Shown piece after piece: positions 11,246-27,105 of a DNA stretch of 64,000 nucleotides; position 1 is the stretch's first letter; the number at the start of each line of letters is the position of its first letter. The translations under genes were made by a program, and so were the position numbers. The stretch is taken from the NCBI GenBank assembly GCA_002483285.1, contig DLHP01000033.1, positions 22,980-86,979 on the forward strand. Reading direction: 5' to 3'. Origin of the DNA: Flavobacterium sp. UBA7665. Lineage in GTDB: Bacteria; Bacteroidota; Bacteroidia; Flavobacteriales; Flavobacteriaceae. Under the pieces are notes generated by a model. It saw only the letters and a program-made list of their open reading frames with translations. It was not told the origin of the DNA and did not search any database.

Positions 11246-12187
11246 CTACATCAAAAACTTCCCGCTGATCGAGTTGTTGTGCTGCACCATCTTCATCACA
11301 TCGGCAAAAAGCGGCGCACAACTCACCACCCTTATTTTGTTGGATTCCTTCTTGAGTGGGATTGAATCGGTTACGATCAATTCCAGCAATTGGGAATTCT
11401 CTATTTTTTCATAAGCTTCTCCCGATAGGATTGCGTGGGTACAAATGGCACGTACGCTTAAAGCTCCTTTTTCAATCATTAAATCTGCCGCCTTGGCGAG
11501 CGTTCCTCCGGTGTCGATCATGTCGTCTACCAGAATCACGTTGCGGCCTTTGACTTCCCCGATGAGTTCCATCGTATCAATCACATTCGCGGCGCGACGT
11601 TGCTTGTAACAGATCACCACATCCGACTCGAGATACTTGGAGTACGCATAAGCCCTCTTAGAGCCACCCATATCCGGCGATGCAATCGTCAGGTTGTCGA
11701 GTTTCAGGCTTCTTACATACGGCAAAAATATCGTCGATGCAAAAAGGTGGTCCACCGGTTTTTCAAAGAATCCCTGGATCTGGTCGGCGTGCAAGTCCAT
11801 GGTCATGATTCTTGTGGCACCGGCAGCATCGAGCAGGTTGGCTACCAATTTGGCTCCGATTGGAACCCGTGGTTTGTCTTTTCTGTCCTGTCTGGCCCAA
11901 CCAAAGTACGGAATCACAGCGGTTACGTGTCTGGCTGAGGCGCGTTTTGCCGCATCGATCATGAGCAAAAGTTCCATCAGGTTGTCGGCGCTCGGGAATG
12001 TAGAGCAGACAATAAAAACACGCAATCCCCTTATCGATTCTTCGTAAGAAGGCTGGAATTCACCATCACTATATTTTGAGAACGTTACTTTACCCAGCGG
12101 AACACCGTATTTCTCGGCGATCATTTCTGCCAGGTGTACACTTTGCGAACACGCAAATATCTTTGCTTCCGGTTCTTGGTGCGGCAT
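11246..12187 (-). CDS. prs: Ribose-phosphate pyrophosphokinase
   Basis: YFGWARQDRK, DLHADQIQGFF, VDDMIDTGGTL; start MPHQ. Confidence 0.97.
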   Translation of the reverse strand: MPHQEPEAKIFACSQSVHLAEMIAEKYGVPLGKVTFSKYSDGEFQPSYEESIRGLRVFIVCSTFPSADNLMELLLMIDAAKRASARHVTAVIPYFGWARQDRKDKPRVPIGAKLVANLLDAAGATRIMTMDLHADQIQGFFEKPVDHLFASTIFLPYVRSLKLDNLTIASPDMGGSKRAYAYSKYLESDVVICYKQRRAANVIDTMELIGEVKGRNVILVDDMIDTGGTLAKAADLMIEKGALSVRAICTHAILSGEAYEKIENSQLLELIVTDSIPLKKESNKIRVVSCAPLFADVMKMVQHNNSISGKFLM

Positions 12188-12381
12188 TTTAGTTAGTTGT
12201 TTTTGTCCGTTGCATTTGGTAAAATTTGGCTTCGACATGCGTCTTAGCTTCTTGCTTATAAAGGCCTCGGATGTAGTTAGTTAGTTGTGTGTTGCGTTAC
12301 CGCGGTGCAAATTTAGGAATAAAAACCAAGTATGAAAGGATATTTTTGAGTTATTTCTTTAGAATATGTAATATTATTTTT

Positions 12382-12389
12382 TACATTTG
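12382..12389 (+). promoter_or_regulatory. -7 element upstream of tRNA-Leu
   Basis: TACATTTG matches TAnnTTTG, about 70 nt upstream of the tRNA. Confidence 0.5.
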
Positions 12390-12457
12390 CACCGTGTTTT
12401 ACAGCAAGCAATTGCTTAAAGCGACAAAATCAACTGTTGTTGGTTTTTGTCTGTCAA

Positions 12458-12537
12458 GCCCGGATGGCGGAATTGGTAGACGCGCTGGTCTCAAACACCT
12501 GTGGGAAACCGTGCCGGTTCGACTCCGGCTCCGGGTA
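12458..12537 (+). tRNA. tRNA-Leu(CAA), CCA not encoded
   Basis: Acceptor GCCCGGA/TCCGGGT+A, D-loop GGAATTGGTAGAC, anticodon loop CTCAAAC, variable arm GG-GAAA-CC, T-arm GCCGG-TTCGACT-CCGGC. Confidence 0.95.
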
Positions 12538-14098
12538 CTTTAACGGAAAAGCTGCCAGAAATGGCGGCTTTTCTTTTTTTATTCTTGTTCCAACCCTCGT
12601 CAACTCTGGTCAAAACCTCAATTACCGTGTTAACCTCAGCGGTTCGACACCCGTCATTTCCAAAAATTAACTTCTCGGTAAATAGCGAACCCGCGAGGAT
12701 TCTTTTTCCATCGTAATCGCTTTCTATAAACAAAGTATCTAAGTTCGCTAACATTTCTAATCCACTATCTATATATTTTCCGATAGATTCGCAACCCGAT
12801 TGGAGAACTTCGATTTCCATATTCACTTGCATCAATTCGCGATTGTATCGCTCAATCATGTTATTATATCTGTCAGCTGCTAAAGTACCGCTCATAAGCA
12901 AATCGTCAGCTTTGTTGAGGTTGTCTTTGAGCAACTGCTGTCTTTCAGACTTAAGAGCGAGAGCTTTCTTTTTATCTCCGTTGATTTGAGCTTCACTATC
13001 TTTCAATATTTCAGAAAACAAGTCTTTTACATTTTTGTTGATTTGTAAATTTACGAGAAGACCTGCAAATCTTTCATGAGCTTCAAAACTCTGAACTCTC
13101 GTCTTGCAGTTTCCACGGCAATGGTAATATGCGTACCTCTTATTTCTTCCTGTTGATAAGCTTCCAGTAATTTGGCGGCCACAGTTTTCGCACGTCAAGA
13201 AATCCCGTAAAGGAAAATCTTCATTTCTATTTGAAGGTTTGAGTCCGTGCCAACGACCTTTTCGAAACACCTCCTGAACTTTGTTGAACGTAGCCAAATC
13301 AATTAACGGCTCATGAATAGCATTGACTACACAGGCGACTTCTTTTTTATACTCAGGTACAATTATTTTCCCCGCGTAGACAATATTCTTGAGCATTTCG
13401 CTAAATGAACTTTTTTTAAGATTCATTCCTTCGACATAAAGCTTTTTTCTTGTAGCTTCAATTGGCTCAACGTTAAGCGCGACTTGCTTAAAAGCTTTTG
13501 TTACAAAGTGCGCCATTGCGTTAGGTACTAATATCGAGCGTTTGCCTTTCGCACTTCCCCTTGTGCTTTTTGCTCCGTCTCTTTGACTCTCATAGCCAAA
13601 TGGTGCGCGACTTGCATAATAACCTTCCTTTTTTGCCTGATATGTTCCGTCCTTAGTTCTGCTTGCAATCTTGGCACGTTCAGCCTCTCCAATTGAAAGG
13701 TAAAAACTTAGGAGGATAACTCTATCCTGATTCTCAGATTCAAGCCATTGTTCAACTGCATTCGGTTCAATGCCGTAACTCTCAAGTTTTTTTATCTCCG
13801 TAAATGCATCGTGAATGTTTCGGGAAAACCTATCCCATTTCGTAAATAAGATTTTATCTACAAGCCGTTTGTTTGTTTTTACGAATGTTTGTAATCGAGA
13901 CCACTCAGGACGTTTGAAATTCTTAGCAGAATGGTCTTCGCGAAAAACGCCGACAACTTCATAATTCATGCGGTCGCAAAAGGCTCGCAGTGTTTCTTCT
14001 TGGTAATCTAAACTATATCCCTGTTGGGCTTGCTCGTCTGTACTTACTCTAACGTATAGTAAGACCTTCTGTAATGCTTCCATTTTCTTCATTTTCAT
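12491..14098 (-). CDS. Large serine recombinase (resolvase + recombinase + Zn-ribbon); C-terminus reads into the antisense tRNA
   Basis: YVRVSTDEQ catalytic Ser, KWDRFSRN, APFGY, CENCG...YYHC. The last 13 aa (GAGVEPARFPTGV) come from the tRNA complement. Confidence 0.93.
   Translation of the reverse strand: MKMKKMEALQKVLLYVRVSTDEQAQQGYSLDYQEETLRAFCDRMNYEVVGVFREDHSAKNFKRPEWSRLQTFVKTNKRLVDKILFTKWDRFSRNIHDAFTEIKKLESYGIEPNAVEQWLESENQDRVILLSFYLSIGEAERAKIASRTKDGTYQAKKEGYYASRAPFGYESQRDGAKSTRGSAKGKRSILVPNAMAHFVTKAFKQVALNVEPIEATRKKLYVEGMNLKKSSFSEMLKNIVYAGKIIVPEYKKEVACVVNAIHEPLIDLATFNKVQEVFRKGRWHGLKPSNRNEDFPLRDFLTCENCGRQITGSLSTGRNKRYAYYHCRGNCKTRVQSFEAHERFAGLLVNLQINKNVKDLFSEILKDSEAQINGDKKKALALKSERQQLLKDNLNKADDLLMSGTLAADRYNNMIERYNRELMQVNMEIEVLQSGCESIGKYIDSGLEMLANLDTLFIESDYDGKRILAGSLFTEKLIFGNDGCRTAEVNTVIEVLTRVDEGWNKNKKRKAAISGSFSVKVPGAGVEPARFPTGV
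12533..12538. other. attL core GGGTAC
   Basis: Overlaps the tRNA 3' end; encodes V-P in the recombinase frame (minus strand). Confidence 0.7.
12546..12580 (+). terminator. Element-supplied terminator for tRNA-Leu, antisense within the recombinase ORF
   Basis: gaaaagctgcca-gaaa-tggcggcttttc plus T7. Confidence 0.8.
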
Positions 14099-14231
14099 TT
14101 TTTTTTATGTTTTTTATGTGACAAATCTTTGCCACTTGGTATAGAACCTCTCGGATTGTTTCAATCTCTTCATCGGAATATCTTATTCCTTCGCGGTTCA
14201 CTATCTTTTTACAATCAGTAATCGACAGCAT
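14049..14231 (-). CDS. 60-aa protein overlapping the recombinase start (possible directionality factor)
   Basis: MLSITDCKKIVNREGIRYSDEEIETIREVLYQVAKI; function inferred from position only. Confidence 0.55.
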   Translation of the reverse strand: MLSITDCKKIVNREGIRYSDEEIETIREVLYQVAKICHIKNIKKNENEENGSITEGLTIR

Positions 14232-14267
14232 TTAATAATCCCGCAGAGATGCTGCGAGAAATTTTTA

Positions 14268-14849
14268 TTAAGTGGTTACTTCAGGATTTAGAAACTTATC
14301 GATTCCAGCTCCCCAGTTTATTTCTTCTTCTAAGATTGCGTGAACTTCGTCGCCTGTAAGCGATACATCTTTACTGTCAAGCAGTTTTCCGCCAAGCTTA
14401 ATTGCCGCTAACCAAACAATACTTTTCTCGAATAGCTTTACCGTCATTTTATGCATTTCTTCAAAAAATGTATAATTGAAGAAATCGCTTTTAGATAGAT
14501 TGTTTGCAAATTCTAATTTTTGACGAACGTTTCCATAATCACTATCAGGAAATATTCCATTAACGGCTTCGCCTAATTTATATGCAATTTCTGGTTTAAC
14601 ATATCCCCATTTAGTTTTTGCCTCTGCGACAAATCCCGCACAAGAGATTAAACACAGTTCTCGCATCTCGTTATGTAAAAGGTCAGAATACCCGTCCTCA
14701 AAATAGATTGGACGGTCACTCATTGGCATGCACATTCCTTCGCCATTAGTCTCAGCAGAGATATATCTCAGACGACGACCCAAAATATGGTATATTACAG
14801 CGTGTCCTGCTTCATGAAAAGCAGCTAACTCAATTTGTTTTAGTTTCAT
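14268..14849 (-). CDS. Stand-alone peptidase M41-like (FtsH protease domain) protein
   Basis: AFHEAGHAVI zinc motif, later CAGFVAE and SD; no ATPase or transmembrane part. Confidence 0.7.
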   Translation of the reverse strand: MKLKQIELAAFHEAGHAVIYHILGRRLRYISAETNGEGMCMPMSDRPIYFEDGYSDLLHNEMRELCLISCAGFVAEAKTKWGYVKPEIAYKLGEAVNGIFPDSDYGNVRQKLEFANNLSKSDFFNYTFFEEMHKMTVKLFEKSIVWLAAIKLGGKLLDSKDVSLTGDEVHAILEEEINWGAGIDKFLNPEVTT

Positions 14850-15235
14850 AATAATATGATTTTAGTTTTAGACATAGGAATTCCTGTCGAAGGAAACTCC
14901 GATTTTTAAATTTTGTATGTGTGGGAATGGCAATTGATGGCCTATCAATTTACCTGCTGTGACTATTCTTTAATTAGTGGCCGCTAAACAGAATAGAAAA
15001 ATCCTGCAAGAGATTTTGTTTCTTAGAATTCTTTCACAAATATATTCATGAATTTTCTTTTTTGCAAGCGGCCTAAAGTGCTGAGGGTCAAGTTTGTCAA
15101 ATATTGTTTTATATTTGGTTTTTTTTCAAATATAAAACAATATTTGGGAAGCTATAATTGATTGTCAATGAGTTATGATTTTTAAATTCGTAAAAAGCCG
15201 AACGTTAATGTTTTGTTAAACTTTAAATTAGCCGT

Positions 15236-15811
15236 CTAAACACTAAGATAAAGATTACTGATTTCGGTTTCACGGATGCCGAGATATATTTTAGTCGTGG
15301 CTACGTTAGTGTGATTAAATAACTGGGAAAGCAAAAGTAAAGCTTGGTCGCTGTATTTGTTTACCTCCCAGACCCGACGACCTAATGTTTTCCGCATGAA
15401 GTGGCTCGAATACTGTCCCTTGATATTATAGAAGTTAAAAATACTCTTTAGTTTGCCGTTCACATATTGGACGGAGAAGGGCTTATCTCCGAAACGATTC
15501 ACAAACATCAAATCACTTTCATTTGCCCCAAGCTGTCCGAACACTCGGCAAAGAACAGTTTGCAATTCTGGGTTTATTGTCACGCGCCTCGTCTTTTTGG
15601 TTTTTTTCTCAACAATGGTAAAATAGTCCTGATTCAAGACTTGATTCCATTTAAGCTGCAAAAGGTCGGAAATACGCAGACCGATATAACTGCCAGTCGC
15701 AATGAGCAACGCAAATTTTAAATCGCCGTCACGCTCCAACTTCAATACTAAGGTTTGCATCTTTTCCCACTCTAAAAAGTCCGAGGTTGTCTTTTGTCCT
15801 TTCAGTGCCAT
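15236..15811 (-). CDS. Small tyrosine recombinase (catalytic domain only)
   Basis: GLRISDLL (R), SHFMRKT (HxxR), HTNVATTKIY (H...Y); 191 aa. Confidence 0.9.
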   Translation of the reverse strand: MALKGQKTTSDFLEWEKMQTLVLKLERDGDLKFALLIATGSYIGLRISDLLQLKWNQVLNQDYFTIVEKKTKKTRRVTINPELQTVLCRVFGQLGANESDLMFVNRFGDKPFSVQYVNGKLKSIFNFYNIKGQYSSHFMRKTLGRRVWEVNKYSDQALLLLSQLFNHTNVATTKIYLGIRETEISNLYLSV

Positions 15812-15917
15812 AATTTCAAGTTTTTACTTTCACTTTTGTTCGATTTAGACCGTTTGTGAAAGCCGTTAATATTCCTCGTTGTGTTAACCCTTGATTTTGT
15901 TGGGTTTACCGTGCTTC

Positions 15918-15941
15918 TTTCACTTCTGATAGAAAGTGAAA
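15918..15941. promoter_or_regulatory. 8-8-8 palindrome beside the tyrosine recombinase promoter (candidate crossover/operator site)
   Basis: tttcactt-ctgataga-aagtgaaa, abutting a minus-strand -7 element (TACATTTG, 15942-15949). Confidence 0.45.
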
Positions 15942-16427
15942 CAAATGTAAATTCCTGGAAATTAACTACCTAACAAAAAATGTTAAATCCAGGACTGGCA
16001 AGGCTTTCCGCAATGTATAATTTGCTTTATCAATATTTGATTGCATTATTTTGCTTTGATAAGTTTACTGGTTGTGGAGGTTTGTTAATTGAGATTAAGT
16101 TTCGACATAATTTGACACCTCCGCCTTATGAAACTAAATTAAATTTTGGTCAATAACTAAATAAATGCACTAACCTAAGGGGTCTTGACCCCAAAGCGAA
16201 TGGAGGTTTAAGTTATAAGGGATTAAAAAAACGCTATTAGCCTTTATTTACTAATTAAATTTAAAATATTTTACTAATTAAAAATTGCAGTTATAGCAAC
16301 GATTTCGAAGATAAAAAAAAGTTAATAAATTTATAAGTGGTTTTTATATAAACCTAACATTATCAAGTGTTTTTCATTTTTTTTCAAAAAAAAACAGATG
16401 TATTAAAATAATATTTATCTTTGTCTC

Positions 16428-16997
16428 ATGAACAACGGAACACTAAATAAATTTCTAATAGAAAGAAAAAAAGAACTTCTTAAAGAATTAGATGCTATTG
16501 ATGTACTTATTGATGCTTCTGATTCTAAAGATGTATATAGTGAAGTTGTAAAATTATTGTCTGAGCGTATTACTTTTACTCCTCAAGGTTCTACTCGTGC
16601 GGAAACTAAAATACTTGAACCTAAGGATGTTGATATTTCTATCGGAATGGCTGCATCACAAGTTAAATTTTATGGAGGTGGGAAAATGATACCAATTGTT
16701 CGTAAAGCAGAGAACACAACATGGAAATATTATCTGGTCGAGGTTATTAAACGATTAGAAGGTAGTTGTAAAACGAATGATATTGCTGAGGTAATGATTT
16801 ATTCAATTAAAGATTTATCTTTTGTTAGAGCGAGGCAGATTGCTGCTGATTTACTCCCTGAATTAGTTAACGATGGACTACTGGAAGTTGAGAAAGGTGG
16901 TTCAAAAAAAGAAGGCCATACGTATATGGTTAAGGGGCATAAATTGAAAATTGTTAGAGATTATATAAAACAAATAAGCACCCAAAAGGATGCTTGA
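16428..16997 (+). CDS. Hypothetical protein: N-terminal coiled coil, C-terminal winged-helix-like region
   Basis: 189 aa AT-rich ORF; LIERKKELLKELDAID; KTNDIAEVM...LPELVNDGLLEVEKGG. Confidence 0.6.
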   Translation: MNNGTLNKFLIERKKELLKELDAIDVLIDASDSKDVYSEVVKLLSERITFTPQGSTRAETKILEPKDVDISIGMAASQVKFYGGGKMIPIVRKAENTTWKYYLVEVIKRLEGSCKTNDIAEVMIYSIKDLSFVRARQIAADLLPELVNDGLLEVEKGGSKKEGHTYMVKGHKLKIVRDYIKQISTQKDA

Positions 16998-17146
16998 TAA
17001 TAAGTTTAAAATGATTGCAGAAGCACTTTATAATGGTAACGGTCTGTGGAGCAAAGCAGATTCCAAACCTACTTTGGGGATTCATTCCAGAAAAGGGTAA
17101 GCGTCCAAAACTTACCAAGCTTTTGCTTTCTTTTTATTCTAATTTT

Positions 17147-17172
17147 GAAGGAGATGTGTCAGCATCTCCTTC
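17147..17172. other. 10-bp perfect hairpin (terminator or sRNA stem)
   Basis: gaaggagatg-tgtcag-catctccttc between convergent transcription units. Confidence 0.5.
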
Positions 17173-17245
17173 TTTTTTCAAAAACAAAGATACGCATTTT
17201 GTTTCAAAATATTTAAAACAGCCTATCTTGGCTTGTTCGATATAA

Positions 17246-17410
17246 TTAATGTTTTCCAATAGTCATTTGCCTCTTGTAACTGGTACTTCCGCAAGTGCAA
17301 CCCGTGAAACTACATTTTTGACAAGTGGTTTTATTACATTTGGCGCATTGCTTGGCGCGGTCGCCGCGGTGTGAGTTACCGCAATTAGGGCAAGAGGAAA
17401 TTTTATCCAT
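17246..17410 (-). CDS. 54-aa Cys-rich zinc-finger microprotein (not in ORF track)
   Basis: MDKISSCPNCGNSHRGDRAKQCAKCNKTTCQKCSFTGCTCGSTSYKRQMTIGKH; three CxxC plus CxC; starts 9 nt after the upstream stop. Confidence 0.7.
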   Translation of the reverse strand: MDKISSCPNCGNSHRGDRAKQCAKCNKTTCQKCSFTGCTCGSTSYKRQMTIGKH

Positions 17411-17419
17411 CGATGAGGT

Positions 17420-17722
17420 TTAGTTGGTGAAGTAAAGAATGATGATGCCGACAAATATGACCATGTGCAAGCCCACGATATAAGTGTATGGCTTTTCGTC
17501 TTTGGTTTTGTTGTCCAACGCTCCTTTATAATCGATTGGGTTGACGGCGTTAAACCTCTGTTCGTAATACGGGAGTATTCCCTTGACAAAGATTAATATA
17601 GATGCGATACATGACAACCATACGCAAAACCAAAACGAGGTATTTGGGATTCTCATAATCCGCTCTGCTATGAAACCGACGGCAAAGGGAAAGATAAGGT
17701 AAAGGATATGTTTTGCGTTCAT
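17420..17722 (-). CDS. Small membrane protein (3 TM)
   Basis: 100 aa with three hydrophobic segments. Confidence 0.7.
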   Translation of the reverse strand: MNAKHILYLIFPFAVGFIAERIMRIPNTSFWFCVWLSCIASILIFVKGILPYYEQRFNAVNPIDYKGALDNKTKDEKPYTYIVGLHMVIFVGIIILYFTN

Positions 17723-17871
17723 TGGTAAGCTGGTTTTACGTTTCCTGTTCGATAGTTCGGATTCATTTTTCTTGCCGTAAGGAGTGCCGCAGATGCGTTA
17801 GCAGCAAATACACGTGTTGCGGTCTTGAACCCGCCGCCCTTTGGGAAAAGGTCAACTATCCATTCTTTCAT
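17719..17871 (-). CDS. 50-aa microprotein (not in ORF track)
   Basis: MKEWIVDLFPKGGGFKTATRVFAANASAALLTARKMNPNYRTGNVKPAYQ; starts 2 nt after the lipoprotein stop, and its TGA overlaps the next ATG (ATGA). Confidence 0.65.
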   Translation of the reverse strand: MKEWIVDLFPKGGGFKTATRVFAANASAALLTARKMNPNYRTGNVKPAYQ

Positions 17872-17873
17872 CT

Positions 17874-18422
17874 TTATAGTTGTGTTATTGTTCCTTGGAA
17901 TGTTTGGACGTTTGCGTTAAGGTTGTCCAATGAGCCACCATTGTAGTAGCGATATATCTTAAATCCAGTCACAACTGCGTTTTCGCCGATGGTGAACTCT
18001 ACATAATCCTGAACTTGTAAGTCTGGAAAATCCAGTCTATACGTGACGCGAGGTTGACCTATGGTCACATAATCCTGATGCTGAAAAAGACCGACCGTAA
18101 AACTGGAAACAACATCAATTAGGCGAATGCCGATGCGCGTGTTTGATTTAACGAATGCCGCGCCCTGAAACCATTCATTAGTCCAATAGCTATTGTTGAA
18201 TTGAGGGGACGGAGTTGTAACATTTTCGTATGGTACACCTTCCATGTTCACGATAGCTTTATCAAGGGTTGCCGAAGTTGGGGACGCGTCAACGATGAGG
18301 TCAAATTGCGAGCCTGTCACACTTGTTTGACTTGTCGGAGGCATAATTGTTTCTTGGTCATTGTCGCCAGAACAGGAAATTAAAAGGGATAATAATGTTA
18401 GGGTAAGTAGCTTTCGTATCAT
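17874..18422 (-). CDS. Lipoprotein, probably surface exposed
   Basis: MIRKLLTLTLLSLLISC lipobox followed by acidic SGDNDQE; -7 element TATATTTG at 18444-18451. Confidence 0.75.
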   Translation of the reverse strand: MIRKLLTLTLLSLLISCSGDNDQETIMPPTSQTSVTGSQFDLIVDASPTSATLDKAIVNMEGVPYENVTTPSPQFNNSYWTNEWFQGAAFVKSNTRIGIRLIDVVSSFTVGLFQHQDYVTIGQPRVTYRLDFPDLQVQDYVEFTIGENAVVTGFKIYRYYNGGSLDNLNANVQTFQGTITQL

Positions 18423-18525
18423 GCTAATTTGTTTGAATATTAGCAAATATACAAAATAAACAGGTCTAAAACAACCTGTTTAATAAGATATATTGAATAC
18501 GTTGGCATTGCTCTAATTTTCTCCT

Positions 18526-18768
18526 ATGGAAATTAAACACGAAAAAGAGTTGGTAGAGCTTGGGAGTAGAATCAAAAAATTGATTGAGGATAAAGGATTA
18601 AAAGTTATGAACGTGGCGCACGATGCCAACCTTGATTCAACCAACTTGCGTAAATATGTCCGTGGTACGCAGGATATGCGTTATAGTACCTTATTAAGGA
18701 TTGCCGCCGCAATCGGCGTTACACCTTCGGAACTTTTGGACGGTCTGGAAATAAAAAAAGAAGGCTAA
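18526..18768 (+). CDS. XRE-family helix-turn-helix regulator
   Basis: LGSRIKKLIEDKGLKVMNVAHDANLDSTNLRKYVRGTQDMRYSTLLRIAAAIGVTPSELL. Confidence 0.9.
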   Translation: MEIKHEKELVELGSRIKKLIEDKGLKVMNVAHDANLDSTNLRKYVRGTQDMRYSTLLRIAAAIGVTPSELLDGLEIKKEG

Positions 18769-18911
18769 CCCTTCTTTTTGAGCAGCTCGACCAATTCTCT
18801 CGCGTCGGCTTTGGAAACCTTCTTCATATCAATTGTAATCGGATATTTTGGTTTAGTGTCTTCTCTTGCCAGCAATCTTTTAAACTGGTCAACGGTTAAT
18901 TTGAGCTTCAT
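18765..18911 (-). CDS. 48-aa basic microprotein convergent with XRE (not in ORF track)
   Basis: MKLKLTVDQFKRLLAREDTKPKYPITIDMKKVSKADARELVELLKKKG; stop overlaps the XRE stop. Confidence 0.55.
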   Translation of the reverse strand: MKLKLTVDQFKRLLAREDTKPKYPITIDMKKVSKADARELVELLKKKG

Positions 18912-19323
18912 AATTCTTTTATCTATAAATATTCTTTAGTTACGGTGAAGACCTAATTTTTTGAGCCAAAATTTTTTAAAAATTTTCTGAGGCCATCCGA
19001 TTGCCACCGACACCATTTGAAAATTGCCTGCCTTATAAGAGCGGAAACGCGAGTTGGGCTAATGGGAAATTCAAGAATTTTCGCCAGCAGGGAGGCAGGG
19101 GATGCTTTTCACTCTAACGGTTTTAGCTTGATGCCAGAAAAATAAAGACTTGCCAAGGGGTTTAGGTTTTAAAGTACGTGCTAAAGGTCTTGTCAAATCA
19201 TCCCCCTTATATCCCTGTGTCGGTTAATTCGAGGCCATTTTTGGATGCTTTCGGAACATTAAAATTACCTCGCTTCGCTTCTTGGATGAGGTTCTACATC
19301 GCCGAGACCATTCTCAAGTACCT

Positions 19324-19557
19324 GCGAGGCAATTTTTAAATGGTAGGCACTCCATCCACACGTTCCCTCATTATAAGAATATATATAAGAATAAAAGAAT
19401 TATAATAGATATATAGTTATCTATAATAAGGCAATCGTCAGATTGCCTCGGTATTGTAAACCACTTCCAACTTACTTAGTTTCTCTTTTCTTCAAATCAC
19501 CTCCAACGGAATCTTTGAAAAATAGAATCGCGAGGCAATTTTTAGATTGCCTCGGTA
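19324..19557. repeat. Putative replication origin: repeated AGGCAAT-N6-ATTGCCT palindromes around an AT-rich core
   Basis: Palindromes at 19429-19448 and 19531-19554, half-site at 19325-19333, nearly pure A/T tract ~19370-19428; upstream of a Rep-like gene. Confidence 0.5.
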
Positions 19558-19749
19558 AGATTTTAAGAAATATCGATAAATCTTTAAAAATCACTTGACT
19601 TTTTAGAATTCGTGCTTATACTTATCAAAACAGTTTTACAAAGGGGTTTGCTGGCGGGTTGCAGTCGCCAGCTTCCGTTGCCCCGAAATCAAAAACGGAA
19701 ATACCAATAATCGCCCGATTGGACGAAAGAGAATAACGGAATATCTAAA

Positions 19750-20535
19750 ATGGAATTCAAATCTTTGAACGACGTGTTCAGCAACAATTTTATTAAATCA
19801 TTACCACACCTTACCAGACTTGACCTAACAGCCAACGAAATCAAAATCATCGAGCTGGTCTTATCCTTTACCCATAAGGGTCTGGATTTCTATATGAACC
19901 ACGCGACCATCGCCGATTATCTGGTCTTAAAGGAGACCAAGACCAAAGCTAAATCAGTGGGCAATATCATCGCGAAGCTTCGTAAGAAGGGCTACATTGA
20001 GACCGTAACCACACACAACTATAACGGAAAGAATGGCGGCTCATCAACAATCATAACTGTTAACGAGGCGTATCTCGAAGAGCAGCTCCATGCCGTATTT
20101 AGCTCTATTGAGGTCTTAGACCAAAATACGCCGCAAGCCTTGTCAACATTGGAGTTAGAACAAGTTAAGATGCAGCTCCCTAATGCGACCCCATCGGGTT
20201 CTGCGGATGCGGTATCTTTCCCGTATAACTACGAGACCAAGAGACAAACCGCAGCCGAATTTGTAGCTGAATTGGATTGTATGGTTGACGAGCCGCGACC
20301 AGTCTTAAACCTTCCAAGTTTGAAAGATTTCGAAGACCCTGACGATGGAGAGCAAGAGGATTTCGGTTACATGGAATTCGAGACTTTAGAAGGCTTCAAA
20401 TCTTTGCTTCAAGCATTGATAGGTCTTGACCAGATGTATCTCAAGAGAGGGACATTACAGCAATTAATTGACAATAGGCTGGGTTGGGATTTAGACAGGA
20501 TGAAAGAGGCGTTTGCATCGACCATACTTAGATAA
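19750..20535 (+). CDS. Winged-helix protein resembling phage/plasmid replication initiators
   Basis: DLTANEIKIIELVLSF...MNHATIADYL...SVGNIIAKLRKKGYIE (HTH_36-like), with an acidic C-terminal region. Confidence 0.6.
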   Translation: MEFKSLNDVFSNNFIKSLPHLTRLDLTANEIKIIELVLSFTHKGLDFYMNHATIADYLVLKETKTKAKSVGNIIAKLRKKGYIETVTTHNYNGKNGGSSTIITVNEAYLEEQLHAVFSSIEVLDQNTPQALSTLELEQVKMQLPNATPSGSADAVSFPYNYETKRQTAAEFVAELDCMVDEPRPVLNLPSLKDFEDPDDGEQEDFGYMEFETLEGFKSLLQALIGLDQMYLKRGTLQQLIDNRLGWDLDRMKEAFASTILR

Positions 20536-20592
20536 ATGAAAATAAAAAATCACTGGCTCAAGGTCAGTTATTATTATTTTTAGTTAAAGATT

Positions 20593-21249
20593 TCAGGCTG
20601 CTATATTTTTTGAAAAATCTAACATTAAATGATAAATTACAACTTCGTTATGCGCAGAGCAGTAAGAATAGTTGAAATCAGTTCTAAGCACTCTGGTGCT
20701 GAGTATTTTTGTTGTATTAGCTGTCCTATACGAATTCTGGAGTAACTGGTTTATTGACCCAATGTTAGCCGCTATATCCAGTGGCTGAACAACAAATCCA
20801 ATCATGCCATTGATTTTATAATGTGTTGAATAAGCTTTAGTAGTAAAACGGCATATCCCATTTTCTATATATTTTGCATTTAAGCCAGTAGTTCCATTTA
20901 AGTTATTGCTATCAAGTCTTTTACATTCTATGATATAATAGGCTTGGGCGTCTAAAAATGTATTTACGGTTTGAATTTTTATATCTGTTCTTCCTACACT
21001 TGCATCCTCTGGAACTTCTCGGTCGAATAAATAGGATATTAATCCCATCTTATTTCGAATTTCATTGTTTTTTAAATACTGTAAAAGGAGGACGTCACGA
21101 ATGGAATTTTCATCGTTTGCTAAAGTTACGTTGTCTTCTAACATAAGATAGTAGCAGCCGACTATTTTTGTAAGAAGGTCTTCAAATTCTGCATTATAGA
21201 AATACTCACTGTACTCGAAGTTGGTTGCGCTTAAATTGTTAAATATCAT
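20593..21249 (-). CDS. PD-(D/E)xK nuclease-like protein
   Basis: GRTDIKI...YYIIECKRL pattern; start overlaps the methyltransferase stop by 11 nt. Confidence 0.65.
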   Translation of the reverse strand: MIFNNLSATNFEYSEYFYNAEFEDLLTKIVGCYYLMLEDNVTLANDENSIRDVLLLQYLKNNEIRNKMGLISYLFDREVPEDASVGRTDIKIQTVNTFLDAQAYYIIECKRLDSNNLNGTTGLNAKYIENGICRFTTKAYSTHYKINGMIGFVVQPLDIAANIGSINQLLQNSYRTANTTKILSTRVLRTDFNYSYCSAHNEVVIYHLMLDFSKNIAA

Positions 21250-24200
21250 GGCGTTTACCTCCTTCCTTTAATATAGCATCAGTAAATTCATTAACATCTA
21301 AATATGCTATTGCCGAATGCCACAATTTCATTTCATTGGGTTTGAAAATATAGAAATAATCTTTTTCAAATCCTCGGATGTCTTTTTGAACAAAAAGTTT
21401 TTCGGTAATTTTTGAAATTCCCATTGCGGCTAAAAAGTTCAAAATGCCTAAGTCATCGGTTTGTTTGTCTATCCACTCTATTTCTTCTTTATAATCATTT
21501 CTTGGAATTATTTTGAAAAACATTCCAATTAATTGATTCGTATGCCATATTTCGATAATGAATTTATTATTACCATTTTCAAGCTTTTTGAAACGAGATT
21601 TAAAAACCTGTGCATACTCAAATAGTAACTCGGACTTGAATGGTATTGGAGAGAAGAGTCTTCTCTTACTTGATGCATCACCCACGATTAGGATTTTAGC
21701 AATGTTTTCACAGTAATTTATTAGTGCATTTTCGGTCTCGTCAATTTCAAATGACTGAATAACGGTTTTGTTAATAGATTTTAATTCTTTTTTTATGATG
21801 GAATTCAATTCGTCAATCTCAATATTATTTATTATGCCCGTATTTTGCTCTTCAAATAACTTTTTTTGAGCAGTTTCAATATTTTCTACATTTGAAGAAA
21901 CATCCATATTTATGTATGGAAGGCTATATTTGTTATAATTTTTCACCCGTTCTCTTTCTACCCCTATCGATGAAAAAATATTTATAGCATAATACATAAA
22001 AAGGTTCGTGCTAAAAATTGACGCAATGTTGTGAAGAACATTCAACTGTTTTTCATCTATTGCTTTTATCGAAGTTATCGAATCCTTAAATAAAACATCC
22101 TTTGTAGAAATAGCACATTTTGCTGTGAGAGTTTTCATATCAATTCCCTCTCGAATTAGAAGCATCGGATGATGGTAAATTCTCACATCTTTTATAATAT
22201 CAATTTTTTCTTTTTCTAAAACTCCAATTTTGTCGTAGTCGATATAGAAAGAAGTGATTGCTTCTGTTTTTAGAAAGGATATACCTTCAATTATACTCGT
22301 ATTTTTAGTTTCTTTTAAAGGGAGCGTTCTACTGTGAAGCCCAGTAGATTCGACAAATAAATCTTTATTTGAAACTATGTTCTTAACAGTTGGAAAATTA
22401 TCTTTCAGCCTTTTTATAAAATTAAAATCGAGATATGACCCATATACTAATACTTTCCAAATCCAATCATGTAGTTTAAAGTTTTGTTGATTAATTAATT
22501 TATAATCGGAACGGTTAATAGTAAAAACTTTAAATAGAGAGAAAAACCTACTTTGTTTTAAAGCAATATGTTCAACGACATTTTTATCAGTATTTTCGCC
22601 GCGCGCGTATCGATAAAATAAAACGGCTGCTGGAGCTACAGCGGGTTGATTCGATTTTTCAAAAACTTCATGCCGTACTGGAGCTAATTCAAAAACTCTA
22701 TCGACGAAATATTCTTCCAACCAATATTGTCTAAATGGACTAAAATTGTCATTGTATCCAAGATTGTAGAGACTACTGCTCCTAATAATTAATGATATGC
22801 GCGTAGTCGCAGAGCAAAAGTCACTAACCCTTAAGACAAATGCTTCTGCAATTTCATTATTATTGATTGCAATCGGATATTTTTTATGCTTTTCTTTTTT
22901 ACTTCGATTCTTTAGATAGGTATTACCTATATCGTCCATTCCATTTCCCTTCCACGGTGGATTTCCCAATATAAATTGAAAGCTGACTTTATTTAAAATA
23001 GAATTGAATGTTGAATTTTCATCAAAAAAATCGGCTTCAAAAAAGTTCGTATTAAAAAGCTCAGGGAAGGTAAATGTTTCAATCTCTTTAGGCTCTAAAT
23101 AATCCAATAACGTAAGGTAAATCGAAAAAATTGCTACTTGGACAGCACTTAGGTCTTTATCAATCCCATATATATTGTCCTGCGCTAAACGCTTTATCGC
23201 TATTTTGAATTCCTCACTGCCGACTTCAATTCCACTATCAGAAATAAACTTCTCAATAACTTTGCGAAGCGTTTCTACAAGGAAAATACCTGAACCACAT
23301 GCGGGGTCTAAAACCTTACAAATGGCAAAGTCAGAAGTGTTTTTTGATAATGCCGAAACTTTTCTGTCACTTTGAAAAATTTCCTTTTCTACAGTTTCTT
23401 TTAAAATATAATCAACTAAAAAAAGAGGAGTATAATATGCTCCCTCTTTTTTTTGATTTTCTTGACCAATAAACATTTCGTAAACATTACTGATAAATTC
23501 AATAGGGATTATCGCAAAGTCATAGAAATCGAACAGCGATAGTTGCCCACTTTCTATGTTTTCGCCATTTAAAAGACGTTTAATGACCTTATATTGGTTT
23601 AAAGTTATTTCATCAAATTCTTCATCAGATAATGGGAAAATGTCGCCTTTAAACCCTTTTTCGTCATTCTCTAAATAATCAAAAAATGATTTGATTTTTT
23701 CAGGATAAGAAAGTAATTCGGAAAACTCATTATTACTCCAAGTTCGAAGCTCGCCATCGAAATTAATTTTTACTTTCCTATCAATAAGATATCTTACAAA
23801 AATTGCTTTTCCAATTATAGCGTTTGCAATTTTAGCAGATAGATTTTGCTCTACTAATTGTTTTCTTGCACTTTGGATGTTTCGTAAAAGATGATAGTCT
23901 ACTCTTTTCTTGTAATTCAGGAGTTCTTGATGTTTTTCCCATGTATTTCCACTTACCAATCGGAAATAGCTAAAATCATCAAGTTTCTCATCTTTTCCCA
24001 ATACCTTTAATAGCTTGGATTTTAAATCGAAATCAAAACCATTGAATATCTCTACAATATTATTCTCTATTATGATTGAAATAGGACACTCGTTGAAATT
24101 CCATATGGCTTTATGTAAAGCGTGCTTATTTGGAGGATTTTCGAAAAATAATATAAGAGGTTTGTTATCAAAACAAAAAAACGCCTTTGGTTTAATATCT

Positions 24201-25072
24201 TTTTCAATCAATCTTTTGACACGGTTTGGAAAGGCAGTTTCATTTTTCCAAGTGTCCTCATGTGTGTAAAAAAGGCCATTATCCTTATTAAGTCCAAGGC
24301 GTGTATATATTTCTTCCAAATTTGCCATCAAATAATCTCCTCTTTGTATTTTATCAAGTTTGAAATTTGAAATTGTGTTATTAATATATTCCTCTGTATA
24401 AAGAATTTTTCCAAAGTGTTTTAATTGCGTCTGATTGTATTCTAATTTGGTTTTGTATAATTGAATTAAATATCTTTTTAATTTATCAGCAATCGCTAAA
24501 TTATACTCGTTTGCATAATATAAAGTGTTAACGACACATAAACTTACATTCGCATTCGGCTTATACAGATAATTTATTTCCCGATTTTGCAGGAAGCTTA
24601 AAAAATCGGTTTTGTAATAAAATTTTTTTTCATTTAAAGAAAAGAGTATTGCGGAAAAATTAAAAAATGCAGTAGAAGGAATAAAGCGGTGCAAATTATC
24701 AACCTCACTATCCAATTCAAGCCTTTTTTGATACTGAACCGCCCATGTTTTCTCTAACGTCCACAAATCGATATTTGTTTCTGAAATATTGATTTTATAA
24801 CCGCCAAAACTATTGCGCCTGACGGATATAGAATTAGGAACTAAAAGTTCAATGTTTATATCATCTCGAATAACAATATCTAAATCCCGAATTTCTTCTT
24901 TTTGCAAAAAGAAATTTCTTATAACTCCACTGAATATGTACACATCATTTACCTCAGCAAGGCGCATCAAAAAAGAATGTACCTCAGCATCTACGTTACG
25001 CTTGATATATTCTAAAAATTCCTCTGAAGAGGAATTGACAATGTCTGCAATATCAGATAATTTTTTGGCCAC
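21239..25072 (-). CDS. Fusion: CCA/poly(A)-polymerase-like nucleotidyltransferase (aa 1-248) + type IIG-like N6-adenine DNA methyltransferase with C-terminal TRD (aa 249-1277)
   Basis: NTase: IFSGVIRNFFL...IRDLDIV, NSFGGYK, IDLW. MTase: GAYYTP, LDPACGSGIFL, GNPPW. GTG start overlaps the dGTPase stop; in-frame ATG at 24328. Confidence 0.8.
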   Translation of the reverse strand: MAKKLSDIADIVNSSSEEFLEYIKRNVDAEVHSFLMRLAEVNDVYIFSGVIRNFFLQKEEIRDLDIVIRDDINIELLVPNSISVRRNSFGGYKINISETNIDLWTLEKTWAVQYQKRLELDSEVDNLHRFIPSTAFFNFSAILFSLNEKKFYYKTDFLSFLQNREINYLYKPNANVSLCVVNTLYYANEYNLAIADKLKRYLIQLYKTKLEYNQTQLKHFGKILYTEEYINNTISNFKLDKIQRGDYLMANLEEIYTRLGLNKDNGLFYTHEDTWKNETAFPNRVKRLIEKDIKPKAFFCFDNKPLILFFENPPNKHALHKAIWNFNECPISIIIENNIVEIFNGFDFDLKSKLLKVLGKDEKLDDFSYFRLVSGNTWEKHQELLNYKKRVDYHLLRNIQSARKQLVEQNLSAKIANAIIGKAIFVRYLIDRKVKINFDGELRTWSNNEFSELLSYPEKIKSFFDYLENDEKGFKGDIFPLSDEEFDEITLNQYKVIKRLLNGENIESGQLSLFDFYDFAIIPIEFISNVYEMFIGQENQKKEGAYYTPLFLVDYILKETVEKEIFQSDRKVSALSKNTSDFAICKVLDPACGSGIFLVETLRKVIEKFISDSGIEVGSEEFKIAIKRLAQDNIYGIDKDLSAVQVAIFSIYLTLLDYLEPKEIETFTFPELFNTNFFEADFFDENSTFNSILNKVSFQFILGNPPWKGNGMDDIGNTYLKNRSKKEKHKKYPIAINNNEIAEAFVLRVSDFCSATTRISLIIRSSSLYNLGYNDNFSPFRQYWLEEYFVDRVFELAPVRHEVFEKSNQPAVAPAAVLFYRYARGENTDKNVVEHIALKQSRFFSLFKVFTINRSDYKLINQQNFKLHDWIWKVLVYGSYLDFNFIKRLKDNFPTVKNIVSNKDLFVESTGLHSRTLPLKETKNTSIIEGISFLKTEAITSFYIDYDKIGVLEKEKIDIIKDVRIYHHPMLLIREGIDMKTLTAKCAISTKDVLFKDSITSIKAIDEKQLNVLHNIASIFSTNLFMYYAINIFSSIGVERERVKNYNKYSLPYINMDVSSNVENIETAQKKLFEEQNTGIINNIEIDELNSIIKKELKSINKTVIQSFEIDETENALINYCENIAKILIVGDASSKRRLFSPIPFKSELLFEYAQVFKSRFKKLENGNNKFIIEIWHTNQLIGMFFKIIPRNDYKEEIEWIDKQTDDLGILNFLAAMGISKITEKLFVQKDIRGFEKDYFYIFKPNEMKLWHSAIAYLDVNEFTDAILKEGGKRHDI

Positions 25073-26525
25073 TTAATTTTTGATAATGGTCTAATGCAAA
25101 TTGGTCAGTCATCCCTGTAATAAAGTCCACAATAATTCTAAGTTTAGAATAATCAGTTAATTTGGTTATATCCTTGTCATTTTCAGGAATTTTATTTTCC
25201 ATTTGAACAGTACGATAAATGCTATTTGAAATCATGCCAATAGCTCTATTACGGTATTTTTCCTCTTCATGAAAAATAAACTCAATATAGTAATCCATAA
25301 GGCCTGTCAATACAGCATGTCCTGTAAGTTCTAAAGAAAGTATTTCTTTTTTAGGGAAAATATGTTTGCCACAAAATATTGAAAGCTTTTTAGTTAATTT
25401 CAGACTGTCGTCTTTTATAAGTTCTTTGTTATACTTTCCTTCATAAATTTCGGGTAAGTGTTTAAAGAAATTTTCAATTGTTATACCGACCAACCTCTCT
25501 ATTAAATAAATTCTTAAATCTACCATTTTAGAGATTTCTCTTCCATAATCGTAAACCTTAATATTAATTCCCTCAAGCGTCTTAAGTAATTCGACATCCA
25601 AGATTTCAGGCTCATTTGATAGTTTTCCATCAGAATCGACTTTAAGCTTTAAGTGTTTTTCTAAATCTTCAAAGCCATACCATCCCTTGTTGAAACCATC
25701 TTCAATATCCATGGTTAAATAACAAATTGAATCCGCCGCTTCCATCAAAAAAGCTAAAGGATGCCGCATGTTTTTTCCTTGACTATCTTTTAGTCCACAT
25801 GCGTCAACGATTTTTTCTAAATATTCTCGTTCAGGCTGAAAAACGCCTCTTTTACTTGTAGACAAGCTTGCCCCATCCACATTATCCGCATTAGGATATT
25901 TTAAGAACGCACCTAATGTAGCATGTGTAAGGTTTAAACCATATGCATTGCTAAGTGCTTGTAACTTCGTTAGAATTCTAAATCCTTGAGCATTGCCATC
26001 ATAATTCTTAAAGTCATCAATTTCTTTTTGACTCATTATAAAAATGCGTTTATTATTTTCCGTAGCCTTTTTTTTAATTTCGGGAGTGATATCTTCCTTC
26101 TTATCTACGACAATTGAATTTTCAAATAATTTTTCAAAATAATTTTGAATTACCGTTTCGCCAAAATGACCAAATGGCGGATTTCCAATGTCATGCACTA
26201 AACAAGCATTTTTTAATATTATCGGAATTGCTCTTAGTAATTGCTCTTTAGTCTGTCCTGTTTCTGAAACAAAAGATGCATCTGCACATACTCTTACACC
26301 TAACGAATATCCTATCGCCATAACCTCCATAGAGTGGGTTAATCTCGAATGTATGTGGTCATCAGTAGTTAAAGGGAATACTTGCGTTTTATCGTGCATT
26401 CTTCGGATAGCGGGACTAAATATTACTCTTCCAAAATCGCTCTCGAAATCATTTCTAATTTCGTCATCAAATGTCTTAGAAGACGGTTTTAATCTGCCTT
26501 TGCTTAAAAATTTATCCCAATTCAT
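25053..26525 (-). CDS. dgt: dGTP triphosphohydrolase (HD family), island-borne
   Basis: RRMHDKTQVFP, HSRLTHSMEV, HDIGNPPFGHFGE, DGNAQGFR, EAADSICY...DIEDG. Confidence 0.93.
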   Translation of the reverse strand: MNWDKFLSKGRLKPSSKTFDDEIRNDFESDFGRVIFSPAIRRMHDKTQVFPLTTDDHIHSRLTHSMEVMAIGYSLGVRVCADASFVSETGQTKEQLLRAIPIILKNACLVHDIGNPPFGHFGETVIQNYFEKLFENSIVVDKKEDITPEIKKKATENNKRIFIMSQKEIDDFKNYDGNAQGFRILTKLQALSNAYGLNLTHATLGAFLKYPNADNVDGASLSTSKRGVFQPEREYLEKIVDACGLKDSQGKNMRHPLAFLMEAADSICYLTMDIEDGFNKGWYGFEDLEKHLKLKVDSDGKLSNEPEILDVELLKTLEGINIKVYDYGREISKMVDLRIYLIERLVGITIENFFKHLPEIYEGKYNKELIKDDSLKLTKKLSIFCGKHIFPKKEILSLELTGHAVLTGLMDYYIEFIFHEEEKYRNRAIGMISNSIYRTVQMENKIPENDKDITKLTDYSKLRIIVDFITGMTDQFALDHYQKLSGQKII

Positions 26526-26600
26526 ATTAGTTTGATTTGATATCAAAATAAGAATTTTAAAAGGATAAATCCTAACATTTTCTTTCGTTGTTTCGTGTTC

Positions 26601-26702
26601 TCAATATTGATGCCGCCTCCCATCTGTTATAGTTTGATATGCTATTGCGAGTCGTTTTAAATCTTCCACAAAACGGTTCGACAATTCAACGTTGTAGGGT
26701 AC
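26601..26702 (-). other. Displaced 3' end of the serine recombinase gene (attP-side tail) plus attR core
   Basis: Reads V-P-YNVELSNRFVEDLKRLAIAYQTITDGRRHQY-stop; the GGGTAC core encodes V-P in the same frame as at attL. Confidence 0.7.
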
Positions 26703-26996
26703 AAAAAGCTCTTCTGAAAAGAAGGGCTTTTTTTTTGGAGCGGAGTCAAACATTTTTTGTTTGACGGCTCCGAGTACAAAAAGCGCTGCTTGAAAGGAAG
26801 GTTTTTTTTGAAGCGGAGTCAAACATTTTTTGTTTGACGGCTCCGGGTACAAAAAGCGCTGCTTGAAAGGAAGGTTTTTTTTGGAGCGGAGTCAAACATT
26901 TTTTGTTTGACGGCTCTTGGTACTGAAAAGCCTCTTCTTTTTGAAGGGGCTTTTTCTTTTTAGGATTGGTGTCAAACATTTTTTGTTTCACGGCTT
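26697..26996 (+). repeat. ~73-bp tandem repeats (about 4 units): palindrome + tRNA-Leu 3' end + terminator-like hairpin
   Basis: gtcaaacattttttgttt(g/c)ac starts at 26745, 26818, 26891, 26971; cggctccgggtac at 26838-26850 is identical to 12526-12538. Confidence 0.9.
26703..26736 (+). terminator. Native tRNA-Leu terminator displaced by the insertion
   Basis: aaaaagctcttc-tgaaaa-gaagggcttttt plus T tract, directly after the attR core. Confidence 0.65.
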
Positions 26997-27076
26997 CGTA
27001 GCATCCACATTAACATTTCCAACTCTAGATGTCTAATGGCGCGTTCAAAATCAGCAACCCTATTATCAGCTAGAAT

Positions 27077-27105
27077 AAAAAAAGCCACCAGTAAAACTGA
27101 TGGCC
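27077..27105 (-). terminator. Terminator of the nuo operon
   Basis: A7 plus gcca.cag-taaaa-ctga.tggc stem. Confidence 0.55.

Follow-up and report, generated by a model that had tools for sequence, protein, structure and literature searches.

A large serine recombinase gene that appears to span its own attachment site at a Flavobacterium tRNA-Leu gene

Introduction

Several integrating elements carry the attachment site attP inside a gene of their own. In the integration-dependent immunity of the mycobacteriophages BPs and Brujita, the gene that contains attP encodes the repressor, whose C-terminus differs between the integrated and free states, and integration removes a degradation tag. In the SSV1-type archaeal tyrosine recombinases, integration splits the gene in two large parts, inactivating it. 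Among the Bacteroidota, Bacteroides mobilizable elements of the NBU1/IntN1 type form islands at the 3' end of a tRNA-Leu gene. The integrases of SSV1-type fuselloviruses have an open reading frame (ORF) that extends across attP and a tRNA gene as their target (PMC4383910), and an IntN1-like island has been described in Riemerella (PMC6764341). In IntP/IntX of the Myxococcus phage Mx8, attP lies inside the integrase coding sequence, and integration into a tRNA gene gives this sequence a new 3' end, with altered C-terminus and activity (PMC6070905; cited in PMC4383910). Here we describe a comparable arrangement for a large serine recombinase (LSR) in Flavobacterium sp. UBA7665. The stretch of DNA analyzed, hereafter the window, comprises 64,000 nucleotides (assembly GCA_002483285.1, contig DLHP01000033.1, positions 22,980 to 86,979). 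It holds an island at a tRNA-Leu(CAA) gene, and the LSR gene of this island appears to span attP, so that the integrated and circular forms would encode proteins with different C-terminal tails.

No question about large serine integrases is more central than how their directionality is controlled, and this control underlies their use in genome engineering. Integrated and free states that encode different isoforms of one enzyme would amount to a natural experiment on that question.

Results

An island at the very 3' terminus of tRNA-Leu(CAA)

The initial annotation of this DNA had pointed to two copies of GGGTAC, at 12533-12538 and 26697-26702, that encode V-P in the same minus-strand frame, and direct reading of the sequence confirms both. 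It had also proposed that the integrated ORF ends in ...KVP and antisense-tRNA residues, and that joining the two ends of the island gives ...KVP and a 31-residue tail. Translation agrees with both statements. The C-terminus of the integrated isoform reads ...SFSVKVP-GAGVEPARFPTGV and stop, the final 13 codons and the stop being the antisense of the 3' half of the tRNA. The minus-strand frame from 26702 reads VP-YNVELSNRFVEDLKRLAIAYQTITDGRRHQY and stop, and would join ...KVP in frame in the circular form only. Taken alone, none of these features of the window goes beyond chance: the window has 8 copies of GGGTAC where 11.5 are expected, the probability of a 31-codon open frame behind a random site is about 0.2, and the rebuilt junction cgttgtaggG/Tactttaacg, which does have the reported 6 of 10 complementary pairs around GT, is weak evidence because GT is one of several possible centers. 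The significance of the boundary and of the tail comes from data outside the window, namely from empty sites and conserved tails.

We scanned metagenome contigs for the 3' half of the tRNA followed by AAAAAG and recovered 11 loci, eight of which carry an orthologous prs beside the tRNA in the same position (87-94% amino acid identity). In L165 and L172, an uninterrupted tRNA-Leu is followed directly by AAAAAGCTCTTCTGAAAAGAAGGGC. The 31 bases directly 3' of the tRNA in L165 (AAAAAGCTCTTCTGAAAAGAAGGGCTTTTTT) are identical to window positions 26703-26733, and the alignment of the window's right flank to the empty sites starts exactly at 26697, at the tRNA's own GGGTAC. Because the tRNA of the empty sites continues directly into the sequence at 26703-26733, the island ends at the GGGTAC at 26697-26702 and not at 26838, where a 13-bp match turns out to be a native repeat. 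Comparison with uninterrupted tRNA-Leu loci, the check that the initial annotation had proposed, thus places the junction where it had been predicted. By this comparison, positions 12539-26702 are an integrated island of 14,164 bp at the extreme 3' end of tRNA-Leu(CAA), with a GC content of 35.2% against 45.5-45.9% in the flanks. A syntenic island with a recombinase 87% identical to that of the window occupies the same prs-tRNA-Leu locus in another metagenome (L178).

The recombinase and its exchangeable tail

By its predicted domains, the enzyme is an LSR. A resolvase catalytic domain is present (PF00239, 1.9e-25). Its R17-V-S19-T-D-E-Q is conserved in 90% or more of the sequences, and R90 and R93 do not vary in 40 sequences. 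It is accompanied by Recombinase and zinc-ribbon domains (PF07508, PF13408), and among the zinc-ribbon cysteines C303 and C306 are invariant while C327 and C331 are at least 90% conserved. We modeled the reconstructed 553-residue circular-form protein with AlphaFold2 (mean predicted local distance difference test score, pLDDT, of 80). Long helices at residues 355-433 of the model correspond to a coiled coil inserted in the zinc-ribbon domain, the C-terminal domain of the A118/LI integrase (PDB 4kis) aligns to residues 217-474, and the best Foldseek matches are the integrase-DNA complexes of SPbeta, Bxb1 and phiC31. The structured core stops near residue 497, so exchange of the tail spares the catalytic and DNA-binding modules. 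A linker at residues 500-529 (pLDDT 31-43) is followed by a helix at residues 527-547, where the pLDDT is about 74 and drops to 55. The tail of the circular form is accordingly predicted to be a 31-residue amphipathic helix.

Homologous proteins carry the same two kinds of ending. In a set of 111 full-length recombinases, 97 end in a tRNA-antisense signature (GxEP), with the Leu(CAA) ending in 54/97. Another six of the 111 have contiguous non-tRNA tails that start at the same V-P position (for example P0109, APP-DIVLSNQFNQDLKRLAKLY...; P0077, VP-YGLNLSNFIEDFNRIRKL...; P0036, VP-ERLDLSNFLPDFERIKSF...), and these natural contiguous versions are called as single proteins. Tails of this type also stand in frame at the far ends of islands, namely in L085 (VP-FTVELSNHFIEDLKKLFYAYKELTKGK...), in L087 (VP-FTIKLSNHFIVDLKRLHYAYMLLTKK...) and in the 6.6-kb tRNA-Leu(CAA) island of Flavobacterium ajazii SSM4.2, L089 at 4907-11501 (VP-FTVELSNLFVEDLKKLSFAYKLLIKNTDY and stop), and two further in-frame tails lie at the ends of tandem arrays (L086 at 4117, L176 at 5506). 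The consensus across far ends and array ends is VP-x3-5-LSNxF[VI]EDLK[KR]L..AY. A tail of the LSN.F.EDLK.LA type, which the initial annotation had expected in homologous recombinases, is therefore found both contiguous with the enzyme and in frame at the far ends. In L085 and L087 a stop codon directly precedes V-P, so the tail cannot be a separate gene. Together with the empty sites, the homologous tails support the earlier proposal that attP lies inside the recombinase ORF and that its C-terminal tail is exchanged.

The way in which the tail varies argues for selection on the protein. Across six aligned tails, the LSN codons TTG TCG AAC (TTGTCGAAC) are invariant in five. Beyond LSN, pairwise differences at the three codon positions number 81/68/135, with 63 synonymous and 84 non-synonymous codon changes. 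This excess of third-position change indicates that the tail is under protein-level selection, and the motif is kept between recombinases that are only 38% identical (P0109 and the window enzyme). Since the whole island separates the integrated tail from its gene, such selection would act only on the circular or tandem-joined form.

Behind the same V-P, P0016 and P0121 have circular-form tails of a second family, with the pattern P..N.NDIL....DLARVWDLYGHL, which is unlike the LSN.F.EDLK type. A search with the 84-residue C-terminal piece returned one fragment, P0121, of this second type. In searches of IMG/VR for attP forms, a scan with a single protein as query was empty, the attP-specific DNA pattern was absent, and a profile scan found only distant relatives with at most 36% identity. 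Searches of PLSDB plasmids and INPHARED phages with tblastn gave no match at E <= 1e-30.

Attachment sites

In large serine integrases, the outer motif recognized by the zinc-ribbon domain (DBD2) lies 5 bp closer to the center in attB than in attP (PMC11722253). Recombination by these enzymes takes place at a central dinucleotide of 2 bp and runs one way only, except with a recombination directionality factor. The sites reconstructed here follow the rule of the 5-bp shift. The spacing between CGGTTCGAC and the core is 9 nt in attB and 14 nt in attP in the window, L085, L087 and L089, and in an Asn-targeting subclade (L004 vs L091) the spacings are 6 and 11 nt, which is the same 5-bp offset. 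The att sites are thus short, with a shared core of 6 bp in the window and the 5-bp offset of the DBD2 motif that is expected of the class. The shared cores are GTACCC in the window, L085 and L087, GTACC in L089, and GTAC at the tandem junction of L086, which narrows the crossover to GTAC/GGTAC. The GT dinucleotide proposed by the initial annotation as the crossover center gives the best P/P' symmetry and is compatible with these data, although they do not prove it. In a comparison of the P and P' arms by eye, CGTT..AG around the GT center was all that the two had in common.

The tRNA terminator and the family-wide layout

The junction also bears on transcription of the tRNA. Behind the tRNA, on its own strand and antisense within the recombinase ORF, lies a hairpin (12545-12574; -20.7 kcal/mol, z -7.1) that would serve as an intrinsic terminator. 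We asked how far this layout extends with a profile scan that kept one genome per species and yielded 80 Bacteroidota loci. The recombinase ORF runs into an ARAGORN-called antisense tRNA in 56/80, covering 18 isoacceptor types and tRNAs for Leu, Arg, Met, Asn, Pro, Lys, Val, His, Ala and Glu. Among the remaining loci, 11 end in tRNA-like sequence and 4 run off the contig. A hairpin on the tRNA strand occurs within the last ~20 codons before the junction in all 56 distinct loci (56/56, among L085-L164), as judged by single-sequence folds with shuffle controls. These hairpins have 10-17-bp stems, usually followed by a T-run, and fold at -15 to -24 kcal/mol (mean z -6.5). The stems differ in sequence among loci with pairing kept. 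RNAalifold found no consensus for the terminator region, since the loop lengths differ.

These observations suggest that one stretch of DNA has a triple use, as protein linker, attP arm and antisense tRNA terminator, and that the element swaps the tRNA's displaced native terminator for one of its own, held antisense in the recombinase linker. The overlap of terminator and coding sequence would explain both the conserved KKGQ...LS / KKxKA..S.SFS peptide and the predicted disorder of this region. Judged by these loci, a layout with attP in the gene appears to be a property of a large clade of tRNA-targeting serine integrases in Bacteroidota that is apparently undescribed. For non-Leu targets (Arg, Met, Pro and others), the anatomy of the attachment sites covers attL only: a scan of 10-kb flanks for the core and the shifted T-loop motif found no far ends for these targets, and only three Leu(CAA) islands scored.

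Tandem arrays were seen in two loci, L176 (5506, 11516) and L086 (4117, ~11560), in which a recombinase is fused in frame to the tail of a different, neighboring element. The far-end tail of L089 is preceded by 45 bp (4866-4911) that duplicate the 3' end of the recombinase gene. The arrays and this copy imply recombination with hybrid sites, which would be insertion into a resident attL or attR.

Cargo, neighboring genes and flanking repeats

The positions of all features are collected in Table 1. Judged by two genes, for a type IIG restriction-modification enzyme and a dGTPase-type protein with an HD domain, the cargo of the island appears to be anti-phage defense, and the L178 island carries the same two genes. 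Directly upstream of the recombinase is a small ORF with a conserved core of ~40 residues (MLSITDCKK.LNK.G..Y.DEEIE.IR.VLYKLAEVCH). The peptide is found upstream of the recombinase in L178, L001, L004, L087, L089, L176 and L177, and even in a subclade with no more than 38% identity. Neither Pfam nor PHROG gave a match for it, and it is a candidate recombination directionality factor (RDF) or cofactor.

The island also contains a 191-residue ORF (15236-15811, minus strand) that corresponds to the catalytic part only of a tyrosine recombinase (Phage_integrase, 4e-17). Since its length is the same in the related L178 island (8301-8876), it is perhaps a working short recombinase and not a fragment. 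The 6-7-kb relatives L001, L004, L089 and L176 share a backbone of the 191-residue ORF, a small serine resolvase of 204-205 residues, a helix-turn-helix protein, two unknown ORFs and the large recombinase; the window island instead has a weak Rep/DnaD-like ORF (19750-20535). Both gene arrangements hint at a plasmid-like circular stage.

To the right of 26702 are four units of xGGTAC and a terminator, including a 73-bp tandem repeat, and three of the four hold tRNA-3'-end-like copies of CGGCTCCGGGTAC with 0-2 mismatches. The 73-bp tandem units (26729-26998) consist of an imperfect palindrome that resembles the tRNA 3' end, GGAGCGGAGTCAAAC ATTTTTT GTTTGACGGCTCC, followed by GGGTAC and a terminator. 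Such units also lie downstream of tRNA-Leu in L165-L168, L172 and L175, with one or two copies per uninterrupted gene. Because uninterrupted loci carry them too, these pseudo-tRNA-end units are native to the locus and do not mark an end of the island. They may be pseudo-attB sites, relics or RNA elements.

In the biofilm metagenome from which the assembly derives (run X1), one Logan unitig covers 12510-26758 at a depth of 60.6, with flanks at 52-55. Additional copies or other strains could account for this small excess.

Table 1. Features of the island and its junctions (positions in the window)
Feature	Position	Strand	Basis or remark
tRNA-Leu(CAA); B arm of attB and left part of attL; intact after integration	12458..12538	+	ARAGORN; same tRNA in empty sites L165, L172
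Predicted large serine recombinase, integrated isoform, 535 aa	12491..14098	-	Pfam Resolvase, Recombinase, Zn_ribbon_recom
GGTTCGAC, T-loop motif of the B arm at 9 nt from the core; may be recognized by the zinc-ribbon domain (DBD2)	12516..12523	+	direct reading; same 8-mer within CGGTTCGAC (9-mer) of the P arm
GGGTAC core at attL; last tRNA bases; V-P on minus strand	12533..12538	+	crossover within core
Intrinsic tRNA terminator, 13-bp stem and T-run; part of P' arm	12545..12584	+	terminator scan; antisense inside recombinase ORF (residues ~KKRKAAISGSFS)
Conserved small ORF, 60 aa	14049..14231	-	directly upstream of and overlapping recombinase start
Type IIG restriction-modification enzyme, 1277 aa (cargo)	21239..25072	-	PADLOC REase_MTase_IIG, E = 0; Pfam N6_Mtase, MmeI_Mtase
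dGTPase-type defense protein, HD domain, 497 aa (cargo)	25053..26546	-	PADLOC dGTPase, 3.3e-65; Pfam HD, HD_assoc
Detached 3' end of recombinase ORF, 31 codons (YNVELSNRFVEDLKRLAIAYQTITDGRRHQY) and stop	26601..26696	-	translation; stop at 26601-26603
CGGTTCGAC in P arm of attP, T-loop mimic, 14 nt from core; L-S-N on minus strand	26674..26682	+	direct reading
GGGTAC core at attR	26697..26702	+	position of the tRNA's own GGGTAC in empty sites
B' arm: native tRNA-Leu terminator (AAAAAGCTCTTCTGAAAAGAAGGGC and T-run), displaced 14 kb	26703..26735	+	first 31 bases identical to L165
tRNA-like fragments	26765, 26838, 26911		native repeats, also in empty sites

Discussion

We propose that the island's own LSR inserts the 14.2-kb element at the extreme 3' end of tRNA-Leu(CAA). 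In the circular form, the gene would span attP and encode a 553-residue enzyme composed of the LSR core, a disordered linker of ~30 residues and a helical tail of 31 residues. The linker would be encoded by DNA that also forms the P' arm and whose opposite strand carries an intrinsic terminator, while the LSN codons would be the copy of the T-loop in the P arm. Recombination within GGTAC would leave the tRNA intact. At attL, the tRNA would be joined to the element's hairpin as a new terminator and to the gene for the 535-residue isoform; at attR, the 96 bp that encode the tail would be joined to the native terminator, 14 kb away. Excision would rebuild the 553-residue gene, and the predicted rebuilt sites are attP, CAACGTTGTAGGGTACTTTAACGGAAAAGC, and attB, the full tRNA joined to CTCCGGCTCCGGGTACAAAAAGCTCTTC. 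On the comparative sequence data we hold this anatomy, that is, the gene of the circular form, the crossover in GGTAC and the attL and attR products, to be very probable, and the explanation as a whole, with the island, attP inside the LSR gene and the exchange of the tail, to be likely.

The consequences of the exchange for the enzyme are less certain. Support for a functional tail comes from protein-level selection on it. By analogy with Mx8 IntP/IntX, the isoform that bears the helix may be proficient for integration or otherwise regulated, with loss of the helix changing activity, directionality or stability; we would give this slightly less than an even chance. In a more specific version, the helix would be a cis-acting module for directionality or activity, such that only the circular element encodes an integration-competent enzyme and the integrated isoform is silent or biased toward excision. 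We consider that version rather doubtful. Excision probably still occurs, with the conserved ~40-residue upstream ORF as a cofactor. The position of this ORF directly upstream of the recombinase speaks against the idea that the tail replaces an RDF.

Several observations weigh against the proposal as a whole. The AlphaFold2 model puts a disordered linker between the tail helix and the core. Integrated-form tails vary in length and sequence among tRNA targets, and the attP-form tails of the distant relatives L008, L011 and L015 are only 3-5 residues; not every member of the wider clade, then, has a long tail. Symmetry of the B' and P' arms with B and P is slight, and the tandem arrays of L086 and L176 are not predicted by canonical LSR rules. 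The 84-residue C-terminal search and the IMG/VR DNA pattern found no attP-form sequence of this exact element. No skip or go-back joints appeared when assembled Logan contigs, from the biofilm metagenome of origin and from related runs, were compared with positions 11000-28500 and with the empty-site locus L165. For the F. ajazii island, runs X26-X31 yielded only related elements, with unitigs that break at the junctions.

The main rival to a functional tail is neutral overlap. Here attP and a terminator must sit at the element's end beside a convergent recombinase gene, the ORF runs to the first stop, and the swap of tails is inconsequential. We take this seriously and rate it as plausible, if somewhat less than even. 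It is consistent with an LSR core that ends near residue 497 ahead of a linker predicted to be disordered, with an alignment to the A118/LI integrase that stops near residue 474, with integrated tails that are whatever the antisense of the tRNA encodes (7 to about 40 residues), and with the very short attP-form tails of some distant relatives. Neutral overlap fits poorly, however, with the third-position excess and the conserved F[IV]EDLK[KR]L..AY, which lie outside the ~25-bp attP half-site, or with the persistence of the tail motif between recombinases of such low identity. The frame itself also argues against it: in the 55 tRNA-abutting loci, which had been chosen because their ORF reads into the tRNA, the LSR frame has no stop within the final 75 nt ahead of the tRNA (55/55), whereas the other two frames contain stops in 43/55 and 50/55. 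A related alternative is that the far-end tail is conserved as DNA, either as an extended attP arm or as a promoter or operator for the cargo, and not as protein. The TTGTCGAAC block is indeed invariant at the nucleotide level and matches the T-loop motif of the tRNA, and a promoter-like match lies at 26604-26577 on the minus strand, just beyond the stop. Beyond LSN, however, most change is at third positions with amino acids kept (GTG/GTA/GTT/ATC/ATA/ATT, TTA/TTG, AAA/AAG, CTC/CTT/TTG/TTA/CTA, GCA/GCT/GCC), V-P always leads into the tail without a break in frame, and contiguous forms occur naturally as single proteins, which makes conservation as DNA very improbable.

Scarcely credible, in our judgment, is a third reading, in which the 13-bp direct repeat CGGCTCCGGGTAC (12526-12538, 26838-26850) marks both island ends, as a classical displaced tRNA fragment, and the island was moved by a tyrosine recombinase, for example that of the 191-residue ORF, with the read-through into the tRNA incidental. 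At tRNA genes such islands are what is usually found (PMC4383910), an ORF with a Phage_integrase domain is present in the island, and the repeat is significant in itself, having 5 matches with at most 2 mismatches where 0.44 are expected. Yet the uninterrupted loci already hold the units of pseudo-tRNA-end and terminator, the tRNA of the empty sites continues as the window does from 26703 onward and not from 26851 onward, and the tyrosine-recombinase ORF has only 191 residues. On the same grounds we rejected a classical Islander-type tRNA island as the class of this element: the tRNA-like fragments are native, the element's own identity with attB is 6 bp, and the only tyrosine-recombinase ORF is the 191-residue one.

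If the proposed switch is real, the state of integration would be read by the recombinase itself, and the att site would take over some of the work of an RDF across a clade of Bacteroidota elements. The target of the family is, in many types of tRNA, the conserved T-arm with the acceptor end, a niche ascribed to tyrosine integrases, and its short, predictable attB sites are attractive for the engineering of Bacteroidota. The layout also matters for annotation, as recombinase genes and islands are mis-delimited if tRNA-like repeats are taken as island ends.

How the element differs from known systems can now be specified. Our literature search found no serine integrase with attP inside its own gene and no tRNA-targeting serine integrase family, which is not proof of absence; the main text of a large LSR survey of 2022 does not mention tRNA. 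As far as this search goes, an LSR gene that spans its own attP and an LSR family that targets tRNA genes would be new, while tyrosine integrase ORFs that span attP are known from Mx8 and SSV. With the integrases of A118/LI, phiC31, Bxb1 and SPbeta the window enzyme has in common the order of domains and short att sites with the DBD2 offset. In those systems, unlike the window, attP lies outside the integrase ORF and attB in protein-coding genes or intergenic DNA. The NBU1/IntN1 elements also differ: they use a tyrosine integrase, their attP and attB are identical over a longer stretch, and the integrase ORF does not overlap the site. The Riemerella tRNA-Arg island was rejected as a family relative because its integrase is a tyrosine recombinase. 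In BPs and Brujita the split gene is a repressor and the integrase a tyrosine recombinase, whereas here the split gene is that of the recombinase itself, in which we found no repressor domain and no recognizable tag or degron. SSV1-type integration splits the integrase gene in two large parts, whereas the exchange in the window is confined to the final 31 codons and leaves the core for catalysis and DNA binding untouched. The closest analogue is Mx8 IntP/IntX, where attP likewise lies inside the integrase ORF and integration gives the gene a new 3' end, as found in the window. An altered activity of the isoforms has been shown for Mx8 and is only inferred here. The Mx8 enzyme belongs to the tyrosine recombinases and its attP is long and of the arm type; the window enzyme, an LSR with a short attP, a 5-bp offset between P and B and an antisense terminator, has neither this chemistry nor homology to Mx8 Int, and so works like the Mx8 type from outside that protein family.

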